Translations under genes and position numbers: made by a program
Notes under the pieces: generated by a model
What the model was told of the DNA's origin: nothing
What the model saw: the letters and a program-made list of their open reading frames with translations, nothing else
The model's database searches: none
NCBI GenBank assembly: GCA_965248385.1
Contig: CBDFIZ010000002.1
Span: 949,904-1,013,903, forward strand
DNA length: 64,000 nt
DNA from: Dehalococcoidia bacterium
Lineage (GTDB): Bacteria; Chloroflexota; Dehalococcoidia; Lucifugimonadales; JAAXIE01
Direction: 5' to 3'
Shown here: positions 6,389 to 63,357 of the stretch, piece by piece
Layout: the number at the start of each line of letters is the position of its first letter
Position numbering within the stretch: position 1 is the first letter of the stretch

Positions 6389-6871
6389 TTGGTGCGTCCT
6401 TTGGAAGTCGGTTTCACCGTCGAGGACCGGCCCTACAAGCTTGGCGGGCTGATACCAGTGACCGTTGACTTGCTGGCTCGGCGGGACGTTTCCATAAGGG
6501 CCGGTTGGGTCGACTTGGTATGTCATGAGCGGTGGACGAGCAACTTCGTGGTCAACGCCCCCACCTCTTCCCGTCCCGTGATAGTGGGTGGAGGCGGACT
6601 GCCAGCTACGGTCCTGCCCACCCCCATGGCCCCACGGCGGGTAACGGAGGAATTAAAGCAGACCTACGTCCACAGTCGGCTGGTGTTCCTAGAGGGCTTA
6701 CACCTGCCATCTGGGGCCACTGCCGCCTACAATGCCCGGCTGGAAGTCGTTCAGGAGCAACCGGACCATGTGGCCGTGAGCACTGTTACATGGAAGCTGG
6801 CCTTGTTCATCGACCTGCCCCATGCCCTGGATGTCCACAGAAGTCGTCCCGTAGAGGTGCAACTGGACTGA
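6389..6871 (+). CDS. hypothetical protein (beta-rich, possibly arrestin/Spo0M-like)
   Basis: 160-aa ORF with GTG start and GC3-rich codons, co-oriented between the MFS and amidohydrolase genes; no motif recognised. Confidence 0.5.
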   Translation: MVRPLEVGFTVEDRPYKLGGLIPVTVDLLARRDVSIRAGWVDLVCHERWTSNFVVNAPTSSRPVIVGGGGLPATVLPTPMAPRRVTEELKQTYVHSRLVFLEGLHLPSGATAAYNARLEVVQEQPDHVAVSTVTWKLALFIDLPHALDVHRSRPVEVQLD

Positions 6872-19742: not shown

Positions 19743-19893
19743 CGTCATTCTTGTGCAATAGCCGCCTGTACCCAGACATCGTCCACCCCTCGTCATTCCC
19801 ACGTAGGCCGGAACCCACGGCCCGCACCGCCTCGGCAAGCCGCTCTCCCGTAAACCGCCCCCGTCATTCCCGCGCAGGCGGGAACCCACGGCC
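19743..19893 (+). repeat. three REP-like palindromic repeats (CGTCATTCCC-N8-GGGAACCCACGGCC type)
   Basis: Copies at 19791-19822 and 19862-19893 are near-identical, with inverted repeat TTCCCGC/GCGGGAA. A degenerate copy lies at 19743-19766. Confidence 0.7.
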
Positions 19894-19949
19894 CACACCA
19901 ACTCTGCAGACCTTAACCACCGCCATACGAAACCCCTGACTGATGGCAC

Positions 19950-20545
19950 TGATACTCGCCCGTTGACAGCGGCCACCCCTCCCCGCTGACCTCAATGCAG
20001 GCAGGGGACTGACCCCTCAGGGGCGCCCCTGCCTTTCTTATTTCAGATCCCTCGAATCAGCGGAATGAGAATGAGCGCGAACGATGGAAATAATGGAATC
20101 TCCCTCCCTCTCTGGAAGGATCCCAGTCCGCTGAAATGCGGTGCAATGCGGCAAGCTGAATCAGGTAGGGCAACGGCAAATGCGGCGTACTACAGATACA
20201 AGAAATTCCCCTCAGCTACGGCCGTTGCCGCATCCCAACTACGCCAGCGACAACACCGGCATCGCACCTCAGCTACGACTCATCCCTTTTGGGCGAGGCA
20301 CTGCCACTGCTGGGAAGCACCGCGTGTCACAGTCTGACCGTATCTAACTAGCTACGAACATGTCACAAATGTCATAGGTCTCAGATAGAATAAACCTGAT
20401 TTTAGCTACGACCAGTGTGACATCCCCAGCTACGGAACGGTCCCAAACTGGAGTTTTGGGCATGCATCATATCCTCACCTCTTCTTGCGCCGCCAGCGGC
20501 AGGCCTACGCAACGGCAGTAGCATCTCCCGCCTTGTGCTACCATT
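19950..20545 (+). ncRNA. structured noncoding locus A of the YYY-AGCTACG family (candidate novel RNA or leader)
   Basis: Promoter box TGATA-N8-TTGACA; 5' hairpin 20000-20033; AGCTACG at 20214, 20271, 20350, 20404 and 20428; two CAGATA-N15-AGCTACG cores with complementary flanks; no frame-conserved ORF. Confidence 0.5.
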
Positions 20546-30096: not shown

Positions 30097-30352
30097 TTGC
30101 TTGCGCTGGCGGAGTTAACTAGACGTCCGATCAACCGTCAGGACAGGGCTACTCCCCCAATCGCGAACGGCTACGCGGTGGAGTTGGGCCGCCAGAAGAC
30201 AATGGCGACGCTGGCGGTGAAGCCGGGGAGAATGGGCGAGCCTAGGGTGTGGAGGCCGTAGTTGGCGACCTCGTTCAAAGCGTCATCGTTGTGGGCCAGT
30301 ACCCGAACCACCCCCACGGGGAGCGTGCTTCTCCCCCTGAAGCCAATCCCTC

Positions 30353-31095
30353 TGACATCAGCCCGTTGACACGGCTGTCCTTCCCCACCTAGGCTCGACA
30401 TATGGCTCCAAAAACGCAATCAGCGAAAACACCCGTAGCAGGGCCGCCAGCAACGGGTGTCGGAAAACCCCTTGCCAATACCCCTTGTAACAACACGCCA
30501 CCGGGCAGACCCACGTGTAGCGGCCACGCCAACCTGCTACCTGCGTGGCCTCTCAATGGTACGTGTGTGTCCCATAAAAGCCCGTTATTTCGTAGCTGGA
30601 TTTACCCAAATGAGACAAATGAGACACATTACAGATACGGAGAATGCGTTTTTAGCTACGACCAGTGTCTCATCTGTACCCTTTCCAGATACGATTCTGG
30701 CCATGTCACTGAGACCAAAACGGTACACCATGTCTCACCCCATACACAGCCTTCCATACCCATGTCGGGCCAAGCGGACCGGATACAACGACGTCACAAA
30801 TGCACAGGCATCAGCTACGAAAACGTGAATTCGTGTGTCAACCCCTTGACTAAAGCAAAGCTGACGCATCGCTGCGCCGGTCCAAATCCCGGTACAATAA
30901 AATGCATACAATTTATGACGGATATAGCATTGGAAGTTAACGAGAGATGCAAAAGACTAGCATTGGAACACCACAAACACCACAAAATGCGAACGTCCAA
31001 GGCCAGTAATGCCGGTTGTCATGCCAAGACCTCCGGCAAAGCAGCAACGGACTCGTGAGAGGGCTAGAGCCTGCCCCGGACCCGGTCCGGGGGGT
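30353..31095 (+). ncRNA. structured noncoding locus B of the YYY-AGCTACG family
   Basis: Promoter box TGACA-N8-TTGACA-N18-TAGGCT; TCGTAGCT (30590) pairs with AGCTACGA (30654); ATGAGACA x2 (30610, 30619) with complements at 30666 and 30731; lower-GC 3' half with further tandem word duplications. Confidence 0.5.
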
Positions 31096-31340
31096 GACGG
31101 TGATTCACGGCGCTTTAACCATGCCACATACAACATTCGAAAGACCCTGGCCATTGCCCGCACTCTGTGGCCATCGGGGTCCACGACCCAGTACTCTTGA
31201 ATGTTGTGCCGGGGTATAGGTTCAGCTTGATTCGCCGGTCACGACTGGCCGTAGACGGCGACACCACCACACCGGTTTGCGCGTCCCAAGCTGCTGTTGT
31301 ACATTGAATCGTCAAATCATCACGCTGGTGGCGCAGGGAT

Positions 31341-36059: not shown

Positions 36060-36943
36060 AGGACCACCGCTAGGGTGGTGAATAGCAACAGGGTCAGTGA
36101 CACGATGGCATTGAGCTTGAAAGCCTTGGAGATCCTAGTCAGGTCGTTGGATCGCACCATTGTGTGCTGGAAAGCGACTATAGCCACTGCCAAGCCCCAA
36201 CCGATGAAGTAGAAGTATGACAGCCCCATCCAGAGGCCCACAGCTAGGAGGCATGAGAGGGTGAGCACATGAGAGAAGCGTGCCCACAAGATCGCTCCGG
36301 GTATGCCGATCTTCCGGGCGATGGATTGGACCCCATATCCCTTGTCGAAGTCATAGTCCAGCGTACCGTAGAAGACGTCGAACCCTCCAACCCAGAATGT
36401 GACAGCAAAGGCCAATAGTATCGCTTCAGGGTCCAAGCTGCCAGTTACGCCAATCCACGCGCCCGCAGGGGCCAGTCCATCGGCAAAACCCAAGGCGTAG
36501 TGGGCTGCCCAAGAGTGATACTTGACGTAAGAATAGCCCACCACAATCACCGCCGCCACGGGAGCTAGGGCAAAAGCCAAGGTGTTCAACTGGGACGCCC
36601 CGTAGAAGAACACCCCCAGCGAGACCAGCATCACGATCCGCATGTCCCAAGGGGTGAGCGTGCCTTGAGGCAGGTGCCTGCCCCTAGTGCGAGGGTTGGC
36701 GATGTCTTCCTTGTGGTGAATCAGCCGGTTGGCCGACATAGCCAGGGTTCGTGCCCCCGTCATGGCCACGTTGATCCACAAAAACTGCTGCCACGTAGGC
36801 CAACCGTCCGCGGCTAACAGCATGCCGATGTAGCCGATGGGCAGCGCGAACATGCTCTCCTCGAACCGTACCGCTGCCAGCAGCAGATTCACCTTCGAGG
36901 GCAGGGCCAGCAACCCCGCTCGCTGCGGCCGGGCTGTGGTCAT
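36056..36943 (-). CDS. ubiA: UbiA family aromatic prenyltransferase
   Basis: Eight to nine TM helices; N..I...EDIANPRTRGRHLPQG Asp-rich-like motif; overlaps the ubiX start by 4 nt. Confidence 0.85.
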   Translation of the reverse strand: MTTARPQRAGLLALPSKVNLLLAAVRFEESMFALPIGYIGMLLAADGWPTWQQFLWINVAMTGARTLAMSANRLIHHKEDIANPRTRGRHLPQGTLTPWDMRIVMLVSLGVFFYGASQLNTLAFALAPVAAVIVVGYSYVKYHSWAAHYALGFADGLAPAGAWIGVTGSLDPEAILLAFAVTFWVGGFDVFYGTLDYDFDKGYGVQSIARKIGIPGAILWARFSHVLTLSCLLAVGLWMGLSYFYFIGWGLAVAIVAFQHTMVRSNDLTRISKAFKLNAIVSLTLLLFTTLAVVL

Positions 36944-37353
36944 AGCTCATCGTCCCTAGACGGTGTCCTATCGGCATCGATGGCATCGCACAGGTGTCGC
37001 AAGGCCGGCAGGTAGTCGGGCAGCCGGCCGTACACTTGCTCCGCCAACTCTTCGTTGTAAGTGTGGACACTAAGGTTACGGTCTTGGGACATCCGGGCCC
37101 ACAGTCTGTCATCAGCCAAAAGGCCATAGGAGAAAGCCTGGGTGAAACAGTCTCGTGGAGAGCGGCATACAAGGCTCTGCTTCCGCAGGTGGTCCTGAAT
37201 GACCTTCCACGATAGCTCAAAGCACAACTCGAACCTTTTGATGCTCGAGTCCCTCGCCATACCACTCTGGGGTTCCGCTAGCGATTCCTCAAAGCGCGCG
37301 ATGGCTTGCTGAAAGTCGACGAAGCGGCGGTCATCTTGCATATAGCAAGTCAC
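36940..37353 (-). CDS. HI0074-family nucleotidyltransferase substrate-binding protein (HEPN toxin-like)
   Basis: RDSSIKRFELCFELSWKVIQDHL...QDRNLSVHTYNEELA (R-X4-H HEPN motif RNLSVH). Confidence 0.85.
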   Translation of the reverse strand: MTCYMQDDRRFVDFQQAIARFEESLAEPQSGMARDSSIKRFELCFELSWKVIQDHLRKQSLVCRSPRDCFTQAFSYGLLADDRLWARMSQDRNLSVHTYNEELAEQVYGRLPDYLPALRHLCDAIDADRTPSRDDEL

Positions 37354-37660
37354 CGCATGCCAGGATGGCCTCGCGGAACCCGTCGTCTACTGTGTGCATG
37401 TCCACTAAGTCGATCTTACGTAGGGTCAGTAGGTCGCCTACCTCTAGCGCCATGCCGGTGTATACACCGAACTCCAGGAGTGAGCCAGTGTCGAAGGCTA
37501 TATCGAGGTCCGACACATTTAACGCCTTACCCTGAGCCCAAGAGCCAAAGAGGTAGACGCAGAGCGGCCCCTCCGGCACATGGCGTCGGATGACATCCAC
37601 CACCTCTTCCACTAGGGGCTGCACGTCGCTGCGGACACCGGGAACGATGTTCCGGTTCAC
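37331..37660 (-). CDS. MNT nucleotidyltransferase (antitoxin-like) partner of the HEPN protein
   Basis: VYLFGSWAQGKALNVSDLDIAFD. The GTG start overlaps the ubiD TGA stop (GTGA). The 3' end overlaps the HEPN gene. Confidence 0.8.
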   Translation of the reverse strand: MNRNIVPGVRSDVQPLVEEVVDVIRRHVPEGPLCVYLFGSWAQGKALNVSDLDIAFDTGSLLEFGVYTGMALEVGDLLTLRKIDLVDMHTVDDGFREAILACGDLLYAR

Positions 37661-39111
37661 AGCCCGTATTCCTGCCACTTGCGGTCCACCAGTTCCTTGA
37701 TGGCTTGGTCCATCTCGATGTCTGGGGGCCATTCGCGTTGGCGGCCCTCGCCTGCGATTTTGTTGGTGGCGTCGATGCCGATCTTGCCGCCGAACTTGGG
37801 CATGAGGGAGGCGTGGTCGAGGTCGTCAATGGGACCGCTGCTGAGGACGAAGTCTTGGGAGGGGTCGATGTTATTTGTGACTCGCCAAGCCACTTCGGAT
37901 ACGTTGTGGACATTCACATTGTGGTCGACCACGATGATGCACTTCACTAAGGACATGAGACCCATGCCCCACAGGCCGTGCATCACCTTGCGGGCCTGTC
38001 CGGGATATTCCTTCTTGATGGAGACGATGACTAGGTTGTGGAAGCCGCCCTCTGCGGGCATGTTCATGTCAACCACTTCGGGCAGCAGAGTGCGTACCAC
38101 CGGCATAAACACCCGCTCGGTCACCTTGCCCATCCAATAGTCCTCCATAGGTGGGCGGCCTACTATCGTCGCAGGGTAGATGGGGTCGCGGCGACGGGTG
38201 ATGCAGGTTGCGTGGAATACGGGGTAGGTGTCGGGCATGGAGTAGTAGCCGGTATGGTCGCCGAAGGGTCCTTCCATCCGCTCGTCTCCGGGAGTCACGT
38301 AGCCTTCGATGACGATCTCAGCTTGGGCGGGTACCTCCAAGTCGACGGTCTTGGCTTTTACCAGCTCTACGCCTTCCTCGCGTATGAAGCCGGCCACCGC
38401 CATCTCATCCATGTCGGGGGGCACGGGGGCGCAGCCGGTCCAGATGGTGGCCGGGTCCCCGCCTAGGACCACCGCCACCTCGACCCGGTCCTGCCCCTTC
38501 TCACCGCCTACTCGGTAATGGTGGGCCCCTACCTTGTGAGTTTGCCAGTGCATGGCAGCGGTGCGCTTGTCGTACACCTGGATGCGATACATGCCAGCGT
38601 TCCGCACCCCGGTGTTAGGGTCGCGGGTGATGACCAAGGGCAGGGTGATGTAGCGGCCTCCATCCATAGGCCAGCACTTGAGGATGGGGAGGCTGAACAG
38701 GTCGACGTCATCTTCGGTCTGTACCACTTCCTGGCATGGGGCGTGGCTCACCACTTTGGGCTGGTACGAGGCAAGGCGGGCCAACTGGCCCAAGGCCCGC
38801 ATCTTGTCCACGATGCCCTTGGGAGGCTGCTGGGCCATGGACATAAGCTGCTCCAAGCGGCCCACCAAGTCATCAAGATGTTCGACTCCCAAAGCCCATG
38901 CCATGCGCTGCTCAGTGCCATACATATTGATGAGGAGGGGTATGTCGTACCCCTCGACGTTCTCAAAAAGCAGGGCAGGGCCGTTCGACTTCACCATCCG
39001 GTCGGCGATCTCGGTGATCTCCAGCTCCCAGCTTACCGGAGCGGTGATGCGCTTCAGGTCGCCCCTACTTTCAAGGAAGGCGATGAAATCGCGGAGGTCC
39101 CTATACTTCAT
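37657..39111 (-). CDS. ubiD: UbiD family decarboxylase
   Basis: MKYRDLRDFIAFLESRGDLKRI N-terminus; 484 aa. Confidence 0.93.
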   Translation of the reverse strand: MKYRDLRDFIAFLESRGDLKRITAPVSWELEITEIADRMVKSNGPALLFENVEGYDIPLLINMYGTEQRMAWALGVEHLDDLVGRLEQLMSMAQQPPKGIVDKMRALGQLARLASYQPKVVSHAPCQEVVQTEDDVDLFSLPILKCWPMDGGRYITLPLVITRDPNTGVRNAGMYRIQVYDKRTAAMHWQTHKVGAHHYRVGGEKGQDRVEVAVVLGGDPATIWTGCAPVPPDMDEMAVAGFIREEGVELVKAKTVDLEVPAQAEIVIEGYVTPGDERMEGPFGDHTGYYSMPDTYPVFHATCITRRRDPIYPATIVGRPPMEDYWMGKVTERVFMPVVRTLLPEVVDMNMPAEGGFHNLVIVSIKKEYPGQARKVMHGLWGMGLMSLVKCIIVVDHNVNVHNVSEVAWRVTNNIDPSQDFVLSSGPIDDLDHASLMPKFGGKIGIDATNKIAGEGRQREWPPDIEMDQAIKELVDRKWQEYGL

Positions 39112-39631: not shown

Positions 39632-40150
39632 ATGGAGAGTGGTATGGGTTGGGCTGAAACCATGGTGCAGGCCCTCAAAGAATCGGATACATCTTTGATT
39701 GCCTATGTGCCCGACATCAGCATCCATCAGGTGACGTCTCTCATTGAGGAAGACCCCTTCTTCCATCTGGTGTCAGCCACTAGGGAAGAAGAGGCCATCG
39801 GGATAGCAGTGGGCGCCCATGCCGTGGGGCGGAACGCCGCGGTATTCATGCAGTCCAGCGGGTTCGGCAATTGCATCAACGCAGTGGCTAGCCTGTGCAT
39901 ACCAGCCCGAACGCCCATCCCCTTCTTCATCAACCTGCGTGGTGAGATAGGGGAGTTCAACATCGCCCAGACGGCCATGGGGCGTGCCACCCGGCCCATA
40001 CTCGATACCTTTGGCATTACTCACTATACCCTCACCGACGAACACCGGCTGGACCTAGTGTTGAAGGGGGCTCTGAAGCTGTGCCACGCAGCGCGGCAGC
40101 CGGTTGCCCTCTGCTTGACTCCTCTGCTGCACGGAGGGAAACTTGCATAG
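39632..40150 (+). CDS. TPP-dependent decarboxylase alpha subunit (sulfopyruvate/phosphonopyruvate decarboxylase-like)
   Basis: TPP_enzyme_N-like ...VPDISIHQV...SATREEEAIGIAVGA. Split-subunit architecture with the next gene. Start uncertain (39563/39632/39644). Confidence 0.7.
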   Translation: MESGMGWAETMVQALKESDTSLIAYVPDISIHQVTSLIEEDPFFHLVSATREEEAIGIAVGAHAVGRNAAVFMQSSGFGNCINAVASLCIPARTPIPFFINLRGEIGEFNIAQTAMGRATRPILDTFGITHYTLTDEHRLDLVLKGALKLCHAARQPVALCLTPLLHGGKLA

Positions 40151-40697
40151 GTTCGAGGCAATGCAGTTGCTGATGCAGCATGTGGGCGACCTACCCGTGG
40201 TCGCCAATCTGGGGCCCACCACTGATGAGCTTTGGAACATCGGTGACCGGCCCCGCAACTTCTACACCTTCGGCTCCATGGGCCTCTGCTCCTCTATAGC
40301 CTTGGGAATGGCCCTCTCCACTACCGACAAGATCCTCTCCTTTGACGGAGACGGCTCGCTGCTGATGAACTTGGGGGCCATCGCCACCATCGGGCGTGAG
40401 ATGCCCTCCAACCTAGTCGTAGTAGTGTGGGACAACGAAGAGTGGGGGCAGACTGGACACCAGTCCAGCCACACCGCCAAGGGCACCGACCTTGAGCAGG
40501 TGGCCCGCAGTTGCAGCATCAGCAAGACAGCCACTGTGGACAACGAGGAAGACTTGGTGACGGTGTTCAGGCAGGCCATCTCGGAAGAGGGCCCGTGGTT
40601 CATCGTGGCTAAGGTGGAAGAAACTGACGACGAGGTCACCTTCGCCCCCAATGAGCCGGAAATGTTTCTGCATCGCTTCCGACAAACCTACCTCTAG
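40143..40697 (+). CDS. TPP-dependent decarboxylase beta subunit (ComE-like)
   Basis: GDGSLLMNLGAIATIG...NEEWG thiamine-PP binding motif; overlaps the alpha subunit by 8 nt. Confidence 0.75.
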   Translation: MHRFEAMQLLMQHVGDLPVVANLGPTTDELWNIGDRPRNFYTFGSMGLCSSIALGMALSTTDKILSFDGDGSLLMNLGAIATIGREMPSNLVVVVWDNEEWGQTGHQSSHTAKGTDLEQVARSCSISKTATVDNEEDLVTVFRQAISEEGPWFIVAKVEETDDEVTFAPNEPEMFLHRFRQTYL

Positions 40698-40731
40698 CCG
40701 GTTGCTCCATCCAATCGTTCCCGCCCTTCCA

Positions 40732-41230
40732 TGACACCGGCCCGTTGACAGCTACGCCCTATCCGCTCTAGTGTTGATGCAGGCAGGGGATCGACCTTCA
40801 AGGTCGCCCCCCTGCCCTTTCCATTCGGCCCCATTTCGAAAGGAACGCAGTGCGCGACGGGAACGCGAACAAGCTGGCAAAGCTGACTCACATACGACAG
40901 CGCGAGAAATGCGAGACGCTGCAGATACAAAAAAGTTCGTTCCAGCTACGACCGGTCTCGTCTCTCAGCTACAAACCGCAATGTTCTCGCCAAGCCACGC
41001 CGCCACGGGAGCCTCATGGACGCACCGTGCCAAAGCTGTCTCAGTTGAAGAGACCGCAGGAATTGCAGTGCATTCAGCTTCAAACAATTGCGCTGCAGAC
41101 ACGAATGGACTGCAATTCTCCAACGATCTTGAGCCGCTACCCGTAAGTCTGGGCGGGAGCCGCGGGAGCCCTCGGCGTATACACGGCCTTATTGACTGGA
41201 AGTAGCCAAAAGTTGTACCTTGATAGCTGG
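40732..41230 (+). ncRNA. structured noncoding locus C of the YYY-AGCTACG family
   Basis: Promoter box TGACA-N8-TTGACA-N18-TAGTGT; 5' hairpin 40782-40816; nested stems GCGAGAA/TTCTCGC and CGAGAC/GTCTCG around CAGATAC-N15-AGCTACGACC; long-range stem 41059-41068/41110-41118. Confidence 0.5.
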
Positions 41231-41272
41231 CCCCGAACGCTCGGGGCCACCGTGATTGAGGGGGCATCAAGC

Positions 41273-41345
41273 GCCCCAGTGGCGCAATGGCAGCGCAGCC
41301 GATTTGTAATCGGCAGGTTGGTGGGTTCGAATCCCCCCTGGGGCT
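41273..41345 (+). tRNA. tRNA-Thr (anticodon TGT)
   Basis: Hand fold: acceptor GCCCCAG/CTGGGGC, D stem GCGC/GCGC, anticodon stem GCCGA/TCGGC, loop TTTGTAA, T loop TTCGAAT. One mismatch in the T stem and a 6-nt variable loop. Confidence 0.75.
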
Positions 41346-41428
41346 CTCCCCAGTGCAGGAAAGCATCTGCTCCCCCGCCCTAGCCATATTGCGCCTGAAG
41401 CGCAGTATGGCTAAACTGGTGCCTATAG

Positions 41429-41517
41429 GGGAGGGGTGGGTGAGTGGTTAAAGCCACCAGACTGTAAATCTGGCGCCCTTGCGGGCTTCGTAGGTTCGAA
41501 TCCTACCCCCTCCACCA
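41429..41517 (+). tRNA. tRNA-Tyr (anticodon GTA), class II long variable arm, CCA encoded
   Basis: Acceptor GGAGGGG/CCCCTCC, anticodon stem CCAGA/TCTGG, loop CTGTAAA, T arm GTAGG-TTCGAAT-CCTAC, terminal ACCA. Confidence 0.9.
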
Positions 41518-41546: not shown

Positions 41547-41621
41547 GCCCACATAGCTCAGAGGTAGAGCACGTTCTTGGTAAGAACGGGGTCGGCGGTT
41601 CGACTCCGCCTGTGGGCTCCA
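41547..41621 (+). tRNA. tRNA-Thr (anticodon GGT), CCA encoded
   Basis: Acceptor GCCCACA/TGTGGGC, D arm GCTC-AGAGGTA-GAGC, anticodon stem CGTTC/GAACG, loop TTGGTAA, T arm GGCGG-TTCGACT-CCGCC. Confidence 0.92.
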
Positions 41622-41647: not shown

Positions 41648-42850
<1,203 letters not shown>

Positions 42851-58799: not shown

Positions 58800-59329
58800 A
58801 ACTCGTCACTGTCACAGACTGGCCTCATTTAGATGGCTGTCTCCAGACCTGCCCGTGGATTGAGGGACGCATTTGCACGCAGGTGTGCACGCATGGTGGC
58901 GCCCCGTAGCTGAGGTGAGGCGATGGGCGTGCATGCTGCCTAGCTGGGGTTGCACGGCGTTTGTAGCTGCGGCGAATTTTTTCGTAGCTAATCCCCCTGC
59001 AATCCCTGCAATTGGGTCCTTTGGTGCAGCTAGCGACCAGCTACGACTTTGGATGTGCATCGGCACTGCATGGTGGGGACGGGCGTGGCAGCGGCGGATG
59101 TTGGATTCTCGTGGCGATGCCGTAGCTGCGGTGGGCTGAGGAGGGGCCTGCACCGATTGTTGTCCTTCAGATGGTTGCAGTTTTTGCACGAGGCGTCCTT
59201 CTCAAGTCGAGTTATGGCCGAAGTTGAATCGTAGGGCCAAATGGAAAGCCGGTGCCACCTCGATGGGTTCGTCCCCGGCCTATGGTCATACTAGCCGAAT
59301 GAGTGTTGGGAGACAATGGCCGATTGTCA
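58800..59329 (-). ncRNA. structured noncoding locus D of the YYY-AGCTACG family (minus strand, upstream of sodN)
   Basis: Minus-strand promoter box TGACA-N8-TTGTCT-N17-TAGTAT (59288-59329). Six AGCTAC(G/A)/AGCTAGG copies. Adjacent tandem ATTGCAGGG x2 (58995-59012). TGCGTGCA x2 with a complement flanking AGCTACG (58874-58934). Confidence 0.5.
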
Positions 59330-62838: not shown

Positions 62839-63357
62839 TGACATTAGCCCGTTGACGGGGACTGCTGTTCCCCTCTAGCCTTCGTACAGACCCGTCCCGT
62901 TCACGACTGGTCCCTCTCTTGGTAGACCACTTCTTGAGGTGCCAAAACATGCGGACCCCTCGCAAGGACAGTCCCGTGGCTGTTCACTACGCACGCGTAC
63001 ACACTCGCCGCTCCAGTGGTCCAGCCCGATGCCATAAAATGTGGCATAGAAATCCCTTAATTTCGTAGTTGAATTGATTACGAATGCTACAGATGCTACA
63101 TAACGCAGATACGGTAAAACGCATTTTAGCTACGAGGCGTCTGGCATGTGAACAAGCCACAGCTACGATTCGTAGCAACCATGGGATAGATGAGACCGAA
63201 ACCAGATAAAAAACTCGCGTCAGCTACAACTACTGTCCCATCCGAAGCTGCAAGGACGGTCGTGATGCAAGGATCTCCCTCCGGAGGGATAACGGTCGGC
63301 TGTCCCCCAGAAGATCCCCTTGATATACTTTCTTGTAGCTACAGCGAGGCACAGCGT
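62839..63357 (+). ncRNA. structured noncoding locus E of the YYY-AGCTACG family (upstream of gatB)
   Basis: Promoter box TGACA-N8-TTGACG-N18-TAGCCT. TCGTAGTT (63063) pairs with AGCTACGA (63128). ATGCTACA x2 (63084, 63093). CAGATAC-N15-AGCTACG. GCTACGA-TT-CGTAGC hairpin (63162-63176). The last AGCTACA lies 8 nt before the gatB SD. Confidence 0.5.

Follow-up and report, generated by a model that had tools for sequence, protein, structure and literature searches.

BOX elements of Streptococcus pneumoniae are built from modules that are conserved in sequence throughout, and an own promoter is not a defining part of them. CsrB/RsmZ-type RNAs are discrete, carry terminators and have a known partner, CsrA, and a GGA word, and stable-RNA operons such as rrn (P1-P2) and thrU-tufB possess tandem promoters and leaders. 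The Correia repeat-enclosed elements of Neisseria span 100 to 155 bp and have conserved 26-bp terminal inverted repeats and a TA duplication (PMC2649163). The palindromes of REP, BIME and REPIN repeats with RAYT are sequence-conserved, 20 to 40 nt long and high-copy, with the word outside the stem foot (PMC8049555 for REPINs). Finally, the concept of re-used or "mobile" prokaryotic promoters covers the promoter only (PMC3575422).

The window analyzed here, a stretch of 64,000 nucleotides from a Dehalococcoidia bacterium, holds a repeat family in five gene-free gaps: ~19950-20545 (locus A), 30353-31095 (B), 40732-41230 (C), 58800-59329 on the minus strand (D), and 62839-63357 (E). Locus C is a gap of ~0.5 kb between a ComE-like TPP-enzyme gene and a tRNA-Thr/Tyr/Thr-tuf operon.

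With BOX elements, the family shares a plan of head, variable internal modules and tail, an intergenic position, transcription with neighbors, and a module number that varies among strains; unlike BOX, it has copy-specific stems, and there is no sequence similarity between the two. As in CsrB/RsmZ RNAs, many copies of a short word lie in loops or single-stranded linkers and a genome holds several paralogues, whereas the family has no terminator, no known partner, another word and a rapid turnover. Two serial promoter-like boxes before a tRNA-tuf operon, with a leader that would be removed at the first tRNA, recall rrn P1-P2 and thrU-tufB, but here the upstream box belongs to a repeat that also stands before unrelated genes, and some relatives that have this operon lack it. 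Correia elements are likewise small, non-coding, dispersed intergenic elements from which neighboring genes can obtain promoters, and they too undergo co-transcription, form RNA folds and vary in presence among close strains (PMC2649163); in contrast to them, the family measures 0.5 to 1 kb, has a single directional head, and conserves its loops and not its arms. A Correia-type MITE was rejected on the lack of a terminal inverted repeat and on ends that differ between copies. Dispersed intergenic hairpins with a short conserved GTAG/CTAC word beside the stem are common to REP/REPIN sequences and this family, but here the word sits in a large loop and the stem is variable; a REP/REPIN assignment was rejected because a shared conserved palindrome is absent and the arms differ in every unit. 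Homologous promoter-bearing sequence before unrelated genes of one genome is also what defines mobile promoters (PMC3575422), whereas the family combines a predicted promoter with a 5' hairpin and structured modules.

Anatomy of locus C and its hairpin units

Locus C consists of a head, one intact unit, one decayed unit and a short tail. Its features and neighbors, all on the plus strand, are as follows (L001, L081 and the other relatives are described below).

40143-40697: ComE-like beta half of a split TPP-dependent decarboxylase (Pfam TPP_enzyme_C, 7e-20)
40731-40774: family head box, with ATGACA (40731-36), -35-like TTGACA (40745-50), an 18-nt spacer and -10-like TAGTGT (40769-74)
40782-40816: 5' stem-loop from folding, with an 8-bp outer stem, a 6-bp inner stem and a UCA loop
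40837-48 and 40855-66: direct word pair CGAAAGGAACGC / CGACGGGAACGC
40871 and 40880: AAGCTG twice, 9-nt period
40889-40990: unit 1 with flanks
40889-99: unit 1, M1-like word CACATACGACA
40902-08: unit 1, W1, GCGAGAA
40911-17: unit 1, W2, GCGAGAC, 9 bases after W1
40922-28: unit 1, M2, CAGATAC, followed by 14 nt and then M3
40943-53: unit 1, M3, CAGCTACGACC
40955-61: unit 1, 3' arm GTCTCGT, complement of W2
40966-77: unit 1, M4, CAGCTACAAACC
40984-90: unit 1, outer 3' arm TTCTCGC, complement of W1
41039-41055: small hairpin GTCTC-AGTTGAA-GAGAC, in both MFE and centroid folds
41060-41118: unit 2, decayed, arms 41060-75 and 41103-18 (inverted repeat I2; covariance model)
41126-41151: conserved tail block ATCTTGAGCCGCTACCCGTAAGTCTG, kept in L001 and L081
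41153-70: tandem GCGGGAGCC, two copies, after the tail block
41192-41221: the operon's own promoter-like box, with TTGACT (41192-97), an 18-nt spacer and TACCTT (41216-21)
41228-41249: leader hairpin, 9 bp, perfect, just before tRNA-Thr
41273-41346: tRNA-Thr(UGU) (ARAGORN, Rfam)
41430-41517: tRNA-Tyr(GUA) (ARAGORN, Rfam)
41547-41621: tRNA-Thr(GGU) (ARAGORN, Rfam)
41648-42850: tuf (EF-Tu; Pfam GTP_EFTU, 3.8e-61)

These coordinates confirmed the tRNA-Thr/Tyr/Thr-tuf operon that the original prediction had placed downstream. The scan of the window with Rfam 15 at gathering scores returned the three tRNAs only, permissive filters over 40600-41300 gave nothing but microRNA noise (E ≥0.65), and locus C matched no Rfam family, including ROOL, GOLLD, T-box and 6S. 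No terminator-like sites were found between the head and tRNA-Thr, an exact-protein look-up of the ComE-like protein returned no record, and the locus C sequence was single-copy at the 31-mer level. The tRNA-Thr/tRNA-Tyr spacer (41347-41429) carries a strong hairpin (AGCCATATTGCGC…GCGCAGTATGGCT), and 80 to 85 nt of it are skipped by many run contigs that probably belong to other community members. Elsewhere in the window, between ubiA and ubiD, a gene pair on the minus strand (36940-37732) encodes a nucleotidyltransferase (Polbeta) and an NTase_sub_bind protein and looks like an MNT/HEPN-type toxin-antitoxin module.

The head of locus C reads ATGACA-N6-GCCCGTTGACA-N18-TAGTGT and is followed by a strong hairpin. 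In an alignment, it took the same fixed register as the heads at loci A, B, D and E and in L001 and L081, and so did the promoter-like box proximal to the tRNA. The family head pattern, ATGAYA-N6-GCCCGTTGAC-N19-TAnnnT, is present in this register at locus C; the exact word CCCGTTGACAGC is common to loci A and C, whose heads are 71% identical over 65 nt. The -10 hexamers of the heads are weak relative to the E. coli consensus and fall below an E. coli-type scan, that of locus A being poor, and we regard the head as a putative promoter on its sequence. Family word CAGCTACG overlaps the -35-like hexamer at 40749-40759 (TTGACAGCTACGCC), and likewise in L001 and L081. The 5' stem-loop that follows (MFE -27.3 kcal/mol, z = -5.1) was matched by none of 200 shuffles; A, L001 and L081 retain its outer stem, and its inner part varies.

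Downstream of the stem-loop, a letter-by-letter check placed most of the predicted words correctly: AAGCTG at 40871 and 40880, GCGAGAAATGCGAGAC at 40902-40917, CAGATAC at 40922, AGCTACGACC at 40944, GTCTCG at 40955-40960, AGCTACAAAC at 40967, TTCTCGC at 40984-40990, GGAATTGCAG at 41059-41068 and CTGCAATTC at 41110-41118. The exception was a GGAACGC pair, predicted at 40848 and 40859 but actually located at 40842 and 40860, and neither L001 nor L081 retains it. AAGCTG occurs as a pair in L081 too, whereas in L001 a 1-nt deletion breaks the pair. AGCTACAAAC occurs again on the minus strand of the 58800-59329 locus, in agreement with the predicted recurrence of this block.

The family unit has a locus-specific stem of 7 to 9 bp closing a conserved loop of ~37 nt, in which two CAGMTAC words, CAGMTAC(G/A)A in full form, lie ~21 nt apart. 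The loop is the conserved part of the unit (CAGMTAC, two A's and CAGCTACG); a second copy of the 5' arm, at a 9-nt period, is usual, and extra word copies flank the hairpin. We compared 12 units (two each from A, C and L081, and one each from B, D, E, L001, L002 and L003). All nine units first examined formed a helix of 7 to 9 bp in the same register with unrelated arm sequences, and the register holds in the 12. In the 12-unit alignment, pairing cells amounted to 88%, versus 60.5% in shuffles, and seven of the nine stem pairs had changed on both sides; the covariation score was 0.721, versus 0.204 in shuffles, and was reached by 0 of 500. When the partner columns were slid by 1 to 3, pairing fell to 21 to 47%, and when the 5' and 3' flanks were re-paired between units, the observed total was reached in 0 of 100,000 trials. 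On the given strand, G-U pairs exceeded A-C mismatches by 6 to 2, which hints weakly at an RNA role for this strand. In 9 of the 12 units, W1 and W2 were each able to form 5 bp or more with the 3' arm, and in unit 1 of L081 the distal arm copy pairs better (9 bp versus 5). To our knowledge, the loop word matches RfaH ops, boxA, the T-box and the tRNA T-arm neither in word nor in orientation.

Locus C holds two such units, with covariance model scores of 65.1 bits (40909-40964) and 55.7 bits (41062-41117); both are training sequences and match by construction. The assignment of locus C to the family agreed with the original prediction, with the head in register with other heads and the unit anatomy as in other units. 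The folding energy of unit 1 is unremarkable (z = -0.9), and the support for this unit is comparative. Two nested stems had been proposed for it: the inner one, GCGAGAC/GTCTCG(T), covaries across the 12 units, but the outer one is clear only in loci B and C. Unit 2 has 16-nt arms that are 94% complementary (z = -3.05); the stem is longer than in other units at 16 nt, and the loop words have decayed to CAGCTTC and CAGACAC. The long-range stem predicted between 41059 and 41110 is real and is the stem of this decayed unit, with two compensatory pair changes relative to its intact orthologue in L001 (G-C to C-G and G-C to U-A).

Distribution of the family and the same site in relatives

The word AGCTACRAC was found seven times in the window, versus 0.58 expected, and none of 100 shuffles reached 7; the matches are concentrated in the five family loci. 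The unit model matched these five loci and the relatives L001, L002, L003 (minus strand) and L081 only, with no match in the rest of the window or, at E<0.1, among 76 further Dehalococcoidia loci (0.92 Mb). These relatives are MAGs of uncultured Dehalococcoidia, and the runs sharing words of the tRNA-tuf stretch are sponge metatranscriptomes; a search of the literature on such repeats in sponge Dehalococcoidia found nothing relevant. The repeat is lineage-restricted and non-coding. A second unit in the 62839-63357 locus, at 63190-63242, scored 35.4 bits from outside the training set, and in two metatranscriptomes, RNA contigs extending into gatB start at 63190.

A metagenome scan with the pattern AGCTACGAMCN{8,30}CAGCTACRRAMC returned 42 loci, which is about our chance estimate if the collection holds ~10^12 bases. 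These loci were rejected as family members, being tandem repeats or coding low-complexity sequence of unrelated taxa; the same pattern had four matches in viral contigs, also unrelated, and the unit model had no match on the 46 metagenome and viral loci that share the bare words. Five metagenome contigs (L085, L102, L103, L117 and L123) contain tandem arrays with a period of 18 to 34 nt, each including CAGCTACGAAC; they come from unrelated taxa with a G+C of 0.37 to 0.52, the unit model has no match in them, and about this number of tandem repeats would be expected by chance.

All five window copies are co-oriented with the downstream gene, and the elements reach up to the start of the next gene. 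The downstream genes are unrelated, namely, hyuB, a methyltransferase with hisF, tRNA-tuf, sodN and gatB. Genes for a transposase, integrase, reverse transcriptase or RAYT were not found in the 64-kb window, in which all genes are housekeeping.

Using the ComE-like gene as an anchor to locate syntenic relatives, we found the ComE-to-tRNA-tuf order to be kept in 4 of 80 species retrieved. For the window and these four, the length between the ComE stop and tRNA-Thr and the content of the interval are as follows.

Window: 575 nt; head, unit 1, decayed unit 2 and tail
L001: 523 nt; head and tail retained, a 61-nt gap taking in most of unit 1, and an intact unit 2
L002: 625 nt; several units, and a decayed head box with a canonical TTGACA-N17-TATAAT beyond it
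L003: 1367 nt; one unit together with words of the family, on the opposite strand
L070: 161 nt; element absent

L001 is the closest species, with a tuf protein 99.75% identical to that of the window. A further relative, the metagenome contig L081, was found through a tuf protein look-up and has an identical tuf; its flanks are 94 to 98% identical and the interval is equal in length, and it carries two intact units whose arm words differ from those of the window yet are still complementary. The inverted unit of L003 resembles unit 1 of L081. The ComE-to-tRNA gap of L003 is a repeat hotspot: beside the inverted units, this 1.37-kb gap contains six tandem copies of the 15-nt CCACCAACTCATCGG at ~6745-6840.

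The core unit of the original prediction is thus present in the window but not conserved at the site, falling mostly into the 61-nt gap in L001 and having different arm words in L081. Nor was the interval as a whole conserved in relatives with the same tRNA-tuf context: the element is variable, inverted (L003) or absent (L070). In contrast, L001, L002, L003, L081 and the element-free L070 all retain the proximal box and hairpin (41192-41249). Since this box is kept even in L070, a conserved start signal belongs to the operon itself, and the element is a fast-remodeled accessory; with the element variable, inverted or absent and the operon box conserved, the link to the tRNAs is positional rather than a conserved functional coupling.

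Signs of mobility were seen at other loci. At locus B, an RNA contig of a related strain joins 30250 to 31214, the ~960-nt element being absent there. In a DNA-like run, B-like sequence had a summed depth of 95 to 360, versus ~9 in the flanks (multi-copy in the metagenome), and one DNA contig joins the B end at 31147 back to the start at 30352 with 6 nt, GTGCCA, in between; this junction could be due to head-to-tail or tandem copies or to a circle. The same related strain lacks 19767-20136 (370 nt) at locus A in both DNA and RNA contigs, a segment that includes REP-like repeats and the head and 5' hairpin of the locus, and the rest of the element is transcribed there at the hyuA/hyuB level.

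Two further repeats lie at these loci. A REP-like repeat with a palindrome (…CGTCATTCCCGCGCAGGCGGGAACCCACGG…) lies immediately before locus A in two copies, at 19787-19837 and 19858-19908. In the DNA-like run X24, bin 19824-19907 had a summed depth of 5329, versus ~13 to 37 in the flanks, and its RNA depth was 315; the 19787-19908 repeat is very high-copy in the sponge metagenome of X24. At the end of locus B, the palindrome CCCCGGACCCGGTCCGGGG (31049-31119) had a summed depth of 359 in DNA and 105 to 553 in RNA, which points to another high-copy hairpin repeat.

RNA across locus C

A search for RNA runs of the window's own strain found none, as the exact-word runs were all DNA-like; X1 to X4, which hold the exact sequence, showed flat depth and contigs of >100 kb. 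In the metatranscriptome X14, from a related strain, one 654-nt contig (depth 38.7) is colinear with 40757-40954 and 41190-41375. It covers the head, the hairpin and unit 1, and then the proximal box and the whole of tRNA-Thr plus 29 nt beyond; the aligned parts are ~86 to 90% identical, and ~263 nt between them are below the 85% threshold. In the same run, the ComE contigs had depths of 2.5 to 6.6 and the tuf contig 88.6, values that, as means over assembled contigs of a related strain, are a poor measure of expression. These three segments had depths of 4.4, 5.1 and 6.6 in X24, a DNA-like run that shares its host species with X14. X14 is without contigs over 40676-40739 or over the heads of D and E, all of which X24 covers, and DNA carry-over is therefore unlikely as the source of the X14 contig. 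Transcription of the element and read-through into tRNA-Thr are thus supported by one contig of a related strain, in line with the co-transcription suggested in the original prediction.

The X14 contig reaches 40757, and the start that the head box predicts lies ~25 nt further downstream; in addition, X26 and X29 contain weak read-through from ComE. For these two reasons, the contig does not fix the start, and the head is a candidate promoter. In a second metatranscriptome, X25, a contig extends 323 nt upstream of 41190 in strain-specific sequence. The head and proximal body of D and E had almost no RNA in three runs, although the DNA was present, and sodN, just downstream of D, was 30 to 70 times higher than element D. 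The near absence of D and E from RNA indicated that the heads are not generally strong promoters.

Competing explanations and the preferred reading

If the elements were independent stable RNAs that titrate or scaffold an RNA-binding protein in trans, in the manner of CsrB/RsmZ and with the neighbors irrelevant, one would understand why conserved loop words, predicted to be single-stranded, go with stems that vary freely, why each element has a promoter-like head and a protective 5' hairpin, why a genome holds several paralogues, and why G-U pairs outnumber A-C mismatches. Such RNAs are hard to reconcile with the lack of a terminator or defined 3' end, with elements that abut the start of the next gene and, in five of five window copies, point at it, with units lost, decayed or swapped between very close relatives and whole elements missing in related strains, and with the near absence of D and E from RNA in three metatranscriptomes. 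We consider this explanation unlikely.

The presence, absence and inversion of the element among close relatives, the multi-copy state of B-type sequence in the metagenome and the 31147-to-30352 contig junction (tandem pair or circle) would follow from an element acting at the DNA level, whose single-stranded hairpins are substrates of a recombinase or transposase supplied in trans (REP/RAYT or non-autonomous IS110-like) and whose RNA is incidental. REPs contain CTAC/GTAG, and so does the family word. However, known transposases recognize conserved ends, and here the arms differ among copies, terminal inverted repeats are absent, and the only flanking 8-mer pair is at chance level and is not kept in L001. 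The 64-kb window is moreover without a transposase, integrase or reverse transcriptase, and locus C is single-copy by 31-mers. On this evidence, we regard the DNA-level explanation as improbable.

A third explanation, to which we give little credence, is a cis-regulatory leader in which W1 and W2 compete for the single 3' arm and a loop-bound factor decides between them, controlling read-through or processing much as a nut site or attenuator does. Two pairable arm copies in 9 of the 12 units (with the distal copy better in L081 unit 1), co-orientation with the downstream genes at all five window loci and RNA continuous into tRNA-Thr in the X14 contig fit such a leader, but it would have to serve unrelated downstream genes with no terminator to override, and the same operon retains its own promoter box and carries the element inverted in L003 and not at all in L070. 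A small protein gene is highly improbable and was rejected, with neither a conserved frame nor a known domain at locus C: open frames exist (40771-41205, 144 aa; 40850-41146, 98 aa) with tblastn similarity in L081, but there is no Pfam family, the tblastn matches lie in several frames and mirror nucleotide similarity, gaps of 1, 2 and 61 nt relative to L001 break every frame, and stop-free runs of such length are usual at 58 to 60% G+C.

The reading that we favor, and hold to be probable, treats locus C as one copy of a modular intergenic repeat that is dispensable, carries a promoter and at this site provides an extra upstream promoter and leader. Being variable, inverted or absent in close relatives, the element is not a dedicated or conserved regulator of the tRNA-tuf operon. 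Under the favored reading, the head would fire as a promoter and the 5' stem-loop would protect the RNA end; the transcript would pass the units and the proximal promoter into tRNA-Thr, since no terminator follows the head, and, from general tRNA biology, RNase P would free a leader of ~490 nt at the tRNA-Thr 5' end. The element would in this way give the operon a second upstream promoter and a long leader. The element also recombines or moves, its units being lost, swapped or inverted among close relatives with the pairing kept.

Conserved loop words on free stems suggest a sequence-specific reader, and it is our guess that the single-stranded words are protein contact sites. Going further, the unit may be a new RNA or ssDNA module in which a lineage-specific protein reads the double CAGMUAC loop and the duplicated arms serve as an address or guide, the whole being a mobile promoter-bearing RNA element system; we put this forward as a long shot. 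The module design, with its conserved loop, free stem and arm duplicated at 9 nt, is unusual and would be the signature of a loop reader, and the loop motif offers a concrete handle for a search for the partner. For annotation, the family accounts for five large "empty" gaps within otherwise compact operons. If the favored reading is true, an uncultured, sponge-associated Dehalococcoidia lineage carries promoter-bearing structured repeats that rewire transcription before core genes and turn over faster than the genes that surround them.
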